A program made the position numbers and the translations under genes. Below, piece by piece: positions 16,032 to 36,600 of a DNA stretch of 64,000 nt. Position 1 is the stretch's first letter. Every line of letters starts with the position of its first letter. Source of the stretch: Pristiophorus japonicus (lineage: Eukaryota); the NCBI RefSeq assembly GCF_044704955.1, contig NC_091984.1, forward strand, positions 115,754,001 to 115,818,000, in the 5' to 3' direction. The notes under the pieces were generated by a model. It was not told the origin of the DNA, searched no databases, and saw only the letters and a program-made list of their open reading frames with translations.

Positions 16032-17529
16032 TGTACTGAACAGATGAATGAGTCATGGATAAATACCCCGGTCTCAACCAGCAATGCTTTATTCAAGTTA
16101 AAACACACCTGCACCCAGTAAGAACACACCCTGGTAGTGTAATACAAACAAACACAATACAACACACGTCTGGCCTGTATAGTCAGGCCCCTATCCCGAA
16201 GTACCCAATGTCCAAAACCTCCCCCTTAAAACCCTTACTAAGATTTGGTTGGGAGAACACATGATACCCCGTCACACTGTGGCTATGATCTTAAAATTGC
16301 ATGGGCAGAGATGATGCTCACCGATTCATTGGCTTACTCGTTGCTTCTCCTGGTGAGTGTGTTTCTTCTGGTTTCTTCTTTTCGTCCCATGCAGAGTGCT
16401 TGGTTCTTGTGGAAGCGAAGCAGCAAGAGCAAGAGAAAGAGAGAGATGTGGCCTTGCGGCCCCTTTTATATGCGAAGTCTGTTTGCCTTTCCTGGCCCAA
16501 TAAAGTTTGTTCTTGTTTTGAGGCTTCCTGTTTGTGTGTCTTCTTCTGGCCTAATAAAGTTTTCCTTGTTTCGAGGCTTCCTGTTTTGAGTCCAGTGATA
16601 GGTTTTCGCTTCCATCCGATCTGGGGCTTAATGGCTTTCTATTATTCTGGTTTCCTGCCTCTCGGGGTTATCTCATCCAGGTAATGGCTCGATCACTGAT
16701 CAGTTCATCTGATCTAACTCTGACGCTTCTCGGCCTTTTGGCTAAGATCAAGTGTAGTACCGTTTCTGACCAGCCACCATGACCTCAGGATGGTTTCTCC
16801 CTGGTCAGGAAGGTATATGCTTGCATTTTTGGAAACAGGAGGTGGGTGGGGAGGGTTGACCCATCCACCTCCACGGAGGTGTGTGGGGGACCTGACCCAT
16901 CCACCTCCATGGCACGAACCTGGTATTGCAGTACTTCCAGGAACGGTGCAGTGGCTCTAGGCCTTTTGGCTAAGAGCATTGGCGCAGAGTGATCCTTGGC
17001 ATGTGCAAGGTGACCTCTGGCGTTTGTGATTTGACAAAGAATTGGAACGATTGGCTACGAATTAAAAAAAAAAACTCTGACGAGTTCACATTGCTTAACA
17101 ATGGACCCTCCATTTGCCCATTACCTATGGTGAGTTGCCTTATCCAGGCCATTGTCTTCCCAGACCACCCCTACCCATCATTTCAAGTCCAACATGGGAA
17201 AGTACCTGGGGCCCCTCCCACAAACAGGCTTCCAGTTTTGTCTGCAGTGAGAAAATATTATGCCCAACAATTCTTGGGGACCTGATGATTACAGACCCCA
17301 CTTGCCATTTTAGGTCAGACCTAATCAGAACTTGTGCAGTGCATGGGCGATGGAACCAAAGAGGCACGGACAAAGGTAACTTCAAATTATTTTTGTGGGC
17401 CCCGGAGGAGTTAGAGTTGCCGCCTTGGGACCTCACACTTGCAACCCCCACCTCCCCCTGTAACCTTCTGTTTTCCCCTTCCCCCAACCTTAACACTGGT
17501 TCTTTTGCTATGTTAGACTATGTTCAGCA
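16032..17529 (-). mobile_element. Probable solo LTR (ERV or LTR retrotransposon) hosting the U2-derived insertion
   Basis: Termini tgtactgaaca..tgttcagca; minus-strand TATAAAAGGG (~16461-16470) and AATAAA (~16088); duplicated ~54-bp block with an ETS-like motif (16494-16590). No TSD seen. Confidence 0.55.
16724..17074 (+). mobile_element. U2 snRNA-derived, poly(A)-tailed retroposon (SINEU-like element or retrocopy of a variant U2 RNA)
   Basis: 16724-16759 equals U2 nt 3-38; Sm site at 16825-16832; U2 stem-loop IV at 16918-16950; A tail at 17064-17074; direct repeat AACTCTGACG at 16716-16725 and 17073-17082. Confidence 0.9.
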
Positions 17530-33246: not shown

Positions 33247-33550
33247 GTCCAGGCCACGAGAAGTGTCCAGGACTTCCCACATGGCACAGGATGTGCATTC
33301 AACAGGACTGAGCTGCCTTTTCAGGCCTCTGTTAGATTATTAAGTAAAGTATACCACTCTGCCCTAAATAAGAGAGAAGAAAAGACAACAGTGATACTCA
33401 TCAATCAATCACCTACCTGCTGTCCTGTGACGTCCCTCGGTTTTTTTGGGAAATACACCATGGAAGGTACGCGCGCTGCTGCCTCCGATTAGCTCCATGC
33501 TGTTCCTCCACTCTCTTCTTTATGTTCCGCCACCGCTTCCGATTAGGAAA

Positions 33551-33608
33551 GAACATTTCACGAATTTGCGTGTCATCCTTGCGCAGAGGCCATGCTAATC
33601 TACTCTGT
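33551..33608 (-). pseudogene. U6 snRNA 3' half (from the ACAGAG box to near the 3' end)
   Basis: Reverse complement ACAGAGTAGATTAGCATGGCCTCTGCGCAAGGATGACACGCAAATTCGTGAAATGTTC. Confidence 0.93.
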
Positions 33609-36600
33609 TTAGAAACATAGAAATCTACAGCGCAGAAGGAGGCCATTTCGGCCCATTGTGTCTGCACCGGCTGACAAAGAACCGCACAGCCCTCGGTTAC
33701 ATATAAACCTACGAACAAAGAACAATGGCGGAAAGGCAACGAGCACCCAGCCCAACCAGTCCGCACCACACAACTATATTGAAACATTTGACACTCCACC
33801 CCAACCGGAGCCATGGGATCTCCTGGGAGAGACAAAAACCAGATAAATACTCAGGCCAATTGGGGAGAAAGAAAATCTGGGAAAATTCTTCTCCGACCCA
33901 TCCAGGTGATCAAAACTAGTCCAGGAGATCAGCCTGGCTGTATTCGATTCCCTGCAGTACTTACCATCATTTCTGCGCCAGCCAACAAGAGGTTTTCCAG
34001 TCTAATCCCAATTACCAGCTCTAGGTCTGTAACCCTGCAGGTTACTGCACTTTAAGTGCCCATCCAACCACCTTTTAAATGTGGTGAGTGTTTCTGCATT
34101 CACCACCCTTCCAGGCAATGAGTTTCAGACCCCCACAACCCTCTGCGTGAAGAAGCCCCCCCCATCCCCCCTCCCTCAAATCCCCTCTGAACCTTCCACC
34201 AATCACCTTAAAACTATGCCCCCTCATAATTGACCCATCCAGCAATGGAAATTGGTCCTTGCTATCCGCTATATCCAGGCCCCTCAAAATTTTGTACACC
34301 TCAATGAGGTCTCCTCTCAACCTCCTCTGTTCCAATGAGAACAAACCCAGCCTATCCAATCTGTCTTCATAACTAAGATTCTCCATTCCAAGCTGCATCC
34401 TAGTAAATCTCCTCTGCACCCTCTCTAGTGCAATCACATCCTTCCTATAATACAGCGACCAGAACTGCATGCAGGACTCCAGCTGTGGTCTAACCAGAGT
34501 ATTATACAATTTAAGCATAACCTCCCTGCTCTTGTATTCTATGCCTCGGCCAATAAAGGCAAGCATTCCGTATGCCTTCTTAACCACCTTATCCACCTGG
34601 CCTACTTTCAGGGATCTGTGGACAAGCACTCCAAGGTCCTTTTGTTCATCTACACTATTAAGTGGCCTACTGCTAATGTGTATACCCTTTTCTTATTAAC
34701 GCTCCCAAAGTGCATTACCTCACACTTCCTTGAATTAAATTCCATTTGCCACTGCTCTGCCTACCAGATCGATATCCTCCTGCAGCCCATGACTTTCCTC
34801 TTCATTATCAACCACACGGCCAATTTTAGTGCCATCTGCAAACTTCTTAATCATACTCCCTAATTTCAGATCAAAATCATTGATATATACCACAAAAAGC
34901 AAGGGACCCAGTACTAAGCCCTGCGAAACCCCACTGGAAACATCCTTCTAGTCACAAAAACATCCAGGAGCCTTTGCTTCCTACCTCTAAGCCAATTTTG
35001 GATCCAACTAGCCACTCTACCCTGGATCCCATGGGCTTTAACCTTTGTCACCAGTCTACCATGTGGGACCTTATCAAAAGCTTTGCTAAAGTCCATTTAC
35101 ACTACATCATATGCACTACCCTCAGCAACCCTCTTGGTTACCTCCTCAAAAAATTCAATCAGGTTAGTCAAACATGATTTTCCCTTAACAAATCCGTGCT
35201 GACTGTCCCTAATTAATCCTTACCTTTCCAAATGTAGATTTATCTTGTCTTTCAGGATTTTTTCCAATAATTTTCCCACCACTGAGGTTAGGCTGACAGG
35301 CCTGTAATTACTCAGCCAATCCCTTTCTCCCTTCTTAAACAAGGGTACTGTGGTGTATGTAGCACACAAATCACTGACTCCACACGGTCTGGTGTAAGTC
35401 TAACTGCTGTGACCTTCGTCCTTTATTGTTCAGCTCCAGAGTGCCTCCCAGGTGCAATGGTCATTCTTATATAGCCCTTGTTACAGGTACTACCAGGGTT
35501 TCCCACCGCAGCGCCCTCTGTGGTGTGGCATAGTACTTACAATACATTTAAGGTACTGGGACAATACACACATCATTACATAACATCACCTTCCCCCCGC
35601 CTCCCACCTGGACGCAGGACAACGATACACACATCATTACATAACGGAAGGCAGGTGGGCATAGACAGTGCATTAGTATGGTACATATTATCTGGTACAT
35701 TAACTGGTTATTGACTGGTAGCGGAACCTTGATTTCCTTGTTAGCCGTTATCATTAATTGTGCTTCATCCATTATTTTATACAAATACAGTGGCCATTCA
35801 GCATAAAAAAAGTAATTCTTATTATAAATTCACTATCTCACATTAACATAGCTCATTTTAGACTCGCTCTGCCAAACGGAAGTCCTTTGTCGGGACCACC
35901 TCTTTGTAAGGCCCTTTTAAGACTCCCGGGTGCATTTCCTCTTTAAGGCGCCATCTTTGATGCAGGAGGATTCCACGAGGCTTCTCCTTGGGCGCTGCCA
36001 TCTTTGATGCTCTGCAGCTCCGACACGATGCCGCCGCCATCTTCTTCTCCGCCACTCCGAATGCCCTCCGCCGTCGCAGCCTCTGCTCCCCTCCGCTGCC
36101 ACCTGACTTGCCGCCTCTCCTGCGGCCGCCGTGGCCTCTCCAGCGGCTGCACTTGCCGCGTCCCCCGCTGCCTCCATAGCGGCCTCCCCTGCGGCTGCCG
36201 CCGCCCAACGCTACCAGCTCCTCGGCGGGGCCTGCCCAACGGCCTCTTCCTCTGTGGTGCCCTTCCGAACCGCCGACCCCTGGATCCCTCAGCACCCCGC
36301 CCGCAGCGCCCCGCCGGCTCACTCCCCCCCCACTCGGCCCCTCTGTGCAGGGCTGCTTGCCTGTGGGGGCTGGGGCTGCAGGGTCTCTGTGAGGTCCGGG
36401 CCTGGGACTTGCCTGTGGGTGGATTGAGGCTGCAGCTCCAGCTCGGTCGGCGCTGCTCTCTGGGGACCCGGGGCACGGCAGCACCCCGGGGAGCAGCAGC
36501 CTGTGGAGGAATGAAGTCTTCCCAGCTCCCACGGACCGTCCCCATCCACCTCCGGCCGAGGAGTGTCGGCCCATCGCCTGCAACGACCCACAAAGGTAAA

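Follow-up and report, generated by a model that had tools for sequence, protein, structure and literature searches.

Retroposons built from small nuclear RNA have been described under the name SINEU. In its available sections, the original description (Kojima 2015, PMC4494074) confines them solely to crocodilians, where they are inserted in Mariner-N4_AMi via Tx1-Mar, and the accessible part of a second paper cites them as crocodilian only (PMC4758252). It has been proposed that SINEU acquired U2 sequence at the 5' end repeatedly, through template jumps to the U2 snRNA. Their transcription is called an open question in the same sections, because snRNA promoters lie outside the RNA; flanking promoters were suggested. 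No U2-derived SINE outside crocodilians was found in the openly accessible literature that was searched.

Two other systems are relevant. The first is Keno, whose 3' target in U2, as quoted in the accessible text of PMC6136364, runs from nt 39 onward; the target at this junction is also used by Utopia, according to the part of PMC4640811 that was available. The SINE described below has the same 3' junction in arrays of U2 genes (PMC6136364, PMC4640811), the difference being that Keno is autonomous. In the literature searched, no non-autonomous U2-derived partner of Keno was found. The second system, the R2 SIDE and R2/R1 SIDE elements of Drosophila rDNA, would be the nearest mechanistic parallel, judging by the accessible part of their description (PMC3414825). 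They are non-autonomous, reside in a multicopy RNA gene, are co-transcribed from the promoter of their target and depend on a site-specific LINE. However, they are deletion derivatives of a LINE and are freed by a ribozyme, whereas the SINE is built from the target RNA itself, would need no 5' processing and is found genome-wide.

The element was recognized in the window, that is, the whole stretch of 64,000 nucleotides of Pristiophorus japonicus DNA that was analysed. The copy lies on the forward strand between 10-bp target-site duplications (TSDs). The last 2 nt of the left TSD (16716..16725) overlap the head, and the right TSD (17073..17082) overlaps the A-tract by 2 nt. The head (16724..16759) corresponds to U2 nt 3-38, which comprise stem-loop I and the branch-point recognition sequence. 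Its end at 16759 coincides exactly with the Keno insertion site, as given by the 3' target quoted in the accessible text of PMC6136364. The 5' domain (16750..16822) is remodelled and is predicted to fold into one long hairpin, in which most of GTAGTA is paired and the Keno target sequence is altered. The first-pass annotation had seen in the GACCAG/CTGGTC strands (16768-16773/16801-16806) a stem IIa; the helix is present, not as a separate stem IIa, however, but as part of this longer predicted hairpin. The 5' domain is followed by an Sm-like site, A-U5-GG (16825..16832), and two copies of stem III. Copy a (16838..16872) has been perfected to a continuous 13-bp helix (-26.4 kcal/mol compared to -13.4 in U2), and copy b (16875..16908) is an internal duplication with one pair broken by a G>T change. 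Downstream are stem-loop IV (16912..16949) and a second stem-loop I (16954..16977), which is left over from an inner head of U2 nt ~5-38 that is still complete in subfamily O0. A non-U2 tail (16978..17063), with a hairpin at 16981-17023 and, poly(A) aside, no resemblance to the 3' UTR of Keno, leads into a poly(A) tract of 11 nt (17064..17074). The TSDs, head, Sm-like site, hairpins and poly(A) are thus all where the first-pass annotation had placed them.

Comparison with the Rfam U2 model, a check that the annotation had proposed, gave 80.5 bits for the window copy (cut-off 46) against about 192 bits for the U2 genes of the genome itself, and 142 of 179 aligned positions are equal to those of the genome's U2. 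The folding z-score is -6.2, and none of 100 shuffles is as stable. The copy interrupts no long ORF and lacks an snRNA promoter and 3' flank. A classical Pol III SINE with a tRNA, 5S or 7SL internal promoter was considered and rejected, since Rfam gives only U2 matches at this place; a U5 run lies inside the element. Elsewhere in the window (33542-33641, reverse strand) Rfam matches, at 62.5 bits, a 5'-truncated piece of U6 snRNA that lacks the 5' stem-loop of U6 and has no evident poly(A).

A DNA search of the species' own genome (5.9 Gb, 4,318 contigs) yielded 1,799 candidates, of which 40 were scored; the best places among these have 98-100% identity and are dispersed. A 19-mer common to the family has 5,485 exact matches (control 0). 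Exact matches to subfamily head words, which are lower bounds, number 227 for A, the window type, 465 for B, 2,110 for C and 487 for the older O (control 0 each). Mean identity to the subfamily consensus is 99.5% in A (36 copies), 98.0% in B (32), 96.3% in C (24) and 97.4% in O (24), in a sample of 116 classed among 133 extracted copies, most of them picked as best hits; copies taken in order of position give 97.8-98.4% (2 A), 98.7-99.4% (6 B) and 94.1-99.7% (10 C). Most other copies are flanked by TSDs of 7-20 bp, copies end in poly(A), and they are often stacked, with the same TSD between the members of a stack. One O-type stack (L201:1460-1960) is intronic and lies downstream of a receptor-like exon. 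The window copy is almost certainly one member of a young, multicopy SINE family derived from U2. Processed U2 pseudogenes also combine U2 sequence, poly(A) and a TSD, but here thousands of copies hold common internal deletions, duplications and a common tail, which argues for descent from evolving source elements. The proposal of an snRNA-derived SINE family outside crocodilians, which was to be abandoned if the copy proved single and without covariation support, or identical to normal U2, is borne out by the thousands of copies and by a score of 80.5 against 192 bits.

The family agrees with the general definition of SINEU in its U1/U2-type head, its multicopy derived structure, its short non-coding sequence, its poly(A) and TSDs and its Tx1 target in common. 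In the available sections of PMC4494074, SINEU-1, -2 and -3 resemble it in having a U2-derived head, poly(A), TSDs, a length below 500 bp and an oligo-T run inside, as well as in the absence of a LINE tail in common, in tandem copies that sandwich a TSD, in the repeated gain of U2 sequence at the 5' end and in a Tx1 partner of the Keno branch. As the three are described there, the shark family is set apart by its target, which is the U2 gene or look-alikes of it, by its promoter-bearing copies and by its layout of a full U2, a second U2 5' fragment and a tail. It has neither the preference for Mariner-N4_AMi nor the crocodilian host of the named families; at 5.9 Gb, the host genome also exceeds those of crocodilians in size.

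In O0 the layout is as follows: a full U2 from which 9 nt, corresponding to the 3' strand of stem IIa, are missing passes at a microhomology into a second U2 fragment, which extends as far as nt 38 and precedes a short non-U2 tail. Because the inner fragment ends at nt 38, the inner module looks like an old Keno-site insertion to which a full U2 was later added on the 5' side. Subfamilies O1 and O2 have gained, further downstream, a new strand complementary to the 5' strand of stem IIa. In our reading, the present partner of that strand arose downstream and does not descend from the original IIa 3' strand. The first-pass annotation's stem IIa with compensatory changes has to be given up, since the IIa 3' strand was already deleted in the oldest subfamily; nor was the stem IIa/IIb/IIc switch retained, the region having been rewired later. 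In C the 5' domain is rewired and GTAGTA is lost, stem III is duplicated in later C, B and A, and A has regained U2 nt 1-38 with the target sequence altered. The order O, then C, then B and A, is a reading from characters in common rather than from a tree.

The dispersed copies have counterparts inside the arrays of U2 genes. Array B copies are positioned directly behind a U2 promoter and start at +1; past their A-tract, the sequence resumes with U2 nt 39-191 and then the usual 3' flank. A query composed of promoter and B matched 17 places at 100% over all 601 nt (among 40 scored hits). The 267 promoter ends in 38 array stretches lead into an intact U2 in 234 cases, into B in 17 and into a Keno-type LINE in 15 (2 of the 15 after a short extra segment), and one coincides with the end of a stretch. 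Among 3' ends joined to U2 nt 39 in the arrays, 19 are B-type and 14 are Keno. In a second U2 gene type, which has another promoter, one of 21 units holds a distinct B variant, and a third B variant, truncated at its 5' end, is found behind Keno within an array. The three distinct variants point to at least three independent hits on U2 genes. Promoter and 3' flank are both present at 18 B copies. The second U2 gene type is 96% identical and is organized in repeats of 18-21 kb (L053, L151-L172; C9 111.0-113.8 Mb); the units read have, after the gene, a truncated Keno and a U2 3' half or an O element.

That the family re-enters U2 genes, at the site used by Keno, goes beyond the account of the first-pass annotation, which had recommended a search for a master locus. 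B copies behind a U2 promoter are candidates for such a locus; no copy of the window type was found in this position. Neither A nor C was found behind a U2 promoter in the 38 array stretches, in 22 loci of the second U2 type or in the 40 scored hits of the promoter and B query. At eight exact-site junctions, too, no U2 promoter preceded A or C, and the A-tracts measured only 9-16. The arrays may be incompletely assembled, or these sources may have been lost.

The LINE that shares the arrays is an APE-type Tx1 element at Keno's specific U2 site. Its ORF2 has APE, RT and zf-RVT domains, ORF1 is ZCCHC3-like/zf-CCHC, and ORF2 is open in 14 array copies. Its protein relatives are of Tx1 type (amphibian 46-49%, fugu 39%, zebrafish 37%) and none is labelled Keno; there is also a short 81% match to a horn-shark protein. 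An intact 5.7-kb copy behind a U2 promoter carries a U2 nt 1-38 head of its own with the change T34G (L052:1130-6900 (-); L055:650-6005 (-)), and the LINE also inserts into its own head. A LINE in this location would require a long coding RNA from a Pol II snRNA promoter. Keno 3' ends have 487 exact matches, largely dispersed, and none of the 20 dispersed ends that were read is joined to U2 nt 39. Site choice by Keno is relaxed in this genome. At two loci a different 5' segment lies upstream of Keno-like 5' UTR sequence (L182:1900-2400; L184:1200-1300), an indication that a second, related family of Tx1 elements nests with the SINE and Keno.

The insertion sites connect this LINE with the SINE. 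TSDs begin with A at 54 of 58 primary dispersed sites, preceded by a pyrimidine in 50 of the 54 and with a purine-pyrimidine context at -2 in 39. Compared with the U2 site, 53 dispersed sites agree at 4.77 of 13 positions against 3.27±0.22, a value reached in none of 20,000 draws; three TSD-context positions were omitted from this comparison, which also excluded sites internal to stacks, those lacking a TSD of at least 7 and a single exact-site case. Window-type A copies have a TSD in common with a Keno 3' end and also occur at the exact U2 site within an O copy; an O copy sits inside a Keno head at the equivalent site. Such exact-site nests account for 15 of 169 ends, 13 of them from a query biased to these nests, and for none of the 31 3' ends in the position-ordered sample. 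It is very probable, from these sites, that Keno mobilises the SINE. Where the first-pass annotation had left the mobiliser as an L1/Tx1-type LINE, only the Tx1 part holds: L1-type mobilisation was rejected, TT|A being present in only 1 of 54 sites.

The RNA structure was compared with random-edit folding controls that carry an equal number of edits (1,500 controls). Stem III in C, B and A has a predicted stability of -23 to -26 kcal/mol compared to -13.4 in U2, matched by none of the controls in each case. The 5' domain is exceeded in stability by none of them when derived from O0 and by 14 from B to A. No gain over the controls is seen in stem-loop IV (102 and 398 of 1,500), the tail hairpin (103 and 121) or the 5' domain from O0 to O1/O2 (525 and 190). 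The folding predictions thus support the view that hairpins of the source RNAs, namely stem III and the 5' domain, were kept or strengthened, which is one part of the first-pass annotation's idea of a source RNA selected for structure. Correction of inverted repeats by template switching is a mutational route to stronger hairpins. A mutational origin of the strengthening, together with another Tx1 or an L1 family in place of Keno as the partner, is nevertheless extremely improbable. It would accommodate the scarcity of strict two-sided covariation, the one-sided or indel-paired changes in stem III, the stem-loop IV and tail hairpin values within the controls (398 and 103) and the descent of the subfamilies as one lineage; the LINE comparison, moreover, covered Keno rather than the range of Tx1 families. 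It accounts poorly for the G-U intermediates along the stepwise changes in stem III and the tail helix, for targets that resemble the U2 site and for TSDs in common with Keno.

The other part of that idea, kept protein- and RNA-binding sites, is not supported. GTAGTA is kept in only 227 of 2,802 exact A/B/C heads, and in A the branch-point recognition sequence has a predicted unpaired probability of 0.00-0.53 compared to 0.42-0.99 in U2. The Sm-site motif A-U5-G is present in 35 of the 36 A copies, in 29 of the 32 B copies, in 16 of the 24 O copies and in none of the 24 C copies, and its U-run is predicted to be partly paired in A, B and C. The models describe a structured RNA and not a working U2, because the branch-point site is mostly lost and is predicted to be mostly paired in A, and because none of the 24 C copies has the Sm adenine. 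The divergent long U2-like snRNA that had been suggested is not supported as an RNA with U2 function. Loop IV is identical in all 92 A/B/C copies read, 2 nt away from the genome's main U2; invariant as it is, this loop (of the stem-loop at 16912-16949) is unlike that of either U2 gene type read in the genome. In place of GTAGTA, B and C heads have TAACTAAC or TAACTGAC (L055:9260-9280 (-); L019:1870-1915 (+)), which we take to be a branch-point-like word; it occupies exactly the position of the U2 branch-point recognition sequence, and this could be chance.

These features bear on the suggestion that the array B copies are domesticated genes for a long U2-like snRNA with a cellular role, for example as a decoy for Sm/U2B'', the dispersed copies being its retro-pseudogenes. 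The intact promoter, the downstream U2 3' half with its flank, the invariant loop IV, the strengthened helices and the branch-point-like word are all compatible with it. Its probability is very low, given the fast turnover of subfamilies, the variable Sm site, A-tracts of 20-110 nt and a scattered, Keno-like occupancy of array units, all of which fit selfish selection.

The array copies are better regarded as candidate sources. The 16 full array copies represent two variants (14 and 2), and each variant has two exact counterparts among the best 12 dispersed hits, those of variant 1 sharing also its two private changes; such identity does not prove the direction of copying. A start at U2 +2 or earlier is seen in 43 of the 75 dispersed heads, in a sample where 42 of 72 loci were selected as full-length hits, and only one matches the promoter, by 5 nt. 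As head nt 1-28 equal U2, a template jump onto U2 snRNA would also yield ends at +1. The A-tracts of 20-110 nt in array copies compare with a median of 16 and a maximum of 35 in dispersed copies (123 read); long A-tracts are expected of source elements by analogy with Alu. U2 nt 39 onward, the sign of 3' transduction, occurs at none of 169 dispersed ends, and priming would therefore be on the internal A-tract. From these patterns we infer that array copies are transcribed and act as sources, that the A-tract is the priming site and that A and C once had such sources; U2 promoters probably transcribe the source copies in the arrays.

Alternatively, the array copies might be mere targets amplified by array turnover, with Keno mobilising an RNA that stems from host or Keno read-through and with heads added by template jumps onto U2 snRNA. 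The lack of a promoter-bearing A or C copy in the arrays and hits examined would then be no surprise, copies are indeed often stacked behind Keno poly(A), and the 14 of 16 array copies of one variant could stem from a single insertion. This alternative is unlikely, because heads stop sharply at U2 +1/+2 without upstream flanks, the heads of B and C depart from U2 at a single, fixed point (465 and 2,110 exact matches) and long A-tracts are limited to array copies. Furthermore, dispersed Keno heads carry the element's own T34G mark, which indicates that the head was copied from element RNA.

The best explanation, and probably the correct one, is a SINEU-type retroposon that Keno mobilises and whose source copies are driven by U2 promoters. 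It would be non-autonomous and without a promoter of its own. The Keno-type Tx1 LINE would cut U2 genes at nt 37/38 and reverse-transcribe the SINE RNA. Most insertions would fall on loose look-alike sites and become promoterless dead ends, such as the window copy. A few would enter real U2 genes and, because the head of the element is the U2 5' end, would be placed seamlessly behind the U2 promoter and start at U2 +1. These promoter-placed copies would be the sources, and array turnover would amplify and later remove them, giving a succession of subfamilies. Selection on structure would have acted on RNA stability and perhaps on the U2 3' domain, while the 5' part that is active in splicing and the head's Keno target would have been disabled. 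A more complete, closed cycle can be entertained tentatively, with the balance of probability against it. A SINE built from U2 would re-enter U2 genes by means of a LINE that targets U2, capture an snRNA promoter and mature as a pseudo-snRNP bearing Sm/U2B'', which would provide stability and nuclear re-import, evolution having disabled both its own splicing function and the target of its LINE; about 6% of the array units read would make the parasite and about 6% its LINE.

The family offers a candidate answer to the question of SINEU transcription that is left open in the available sections of Kojima 2015 (PMC4494074). One genome holds candidate source genes that are intact, a partner LINE that is likewise intact and a graded series of fossils from O0 to A, which makes that question directly testable. 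If the explanation is true, there would be a second origin of SINEU and a SINE that must home into its parent gene to complete its life cycle. The family would also be a natural experiment on which parts of U2 are kept by a selfish RNA (stem III, loop IV and the U-run) and which are dropped (the branch-point site and stem IIa).
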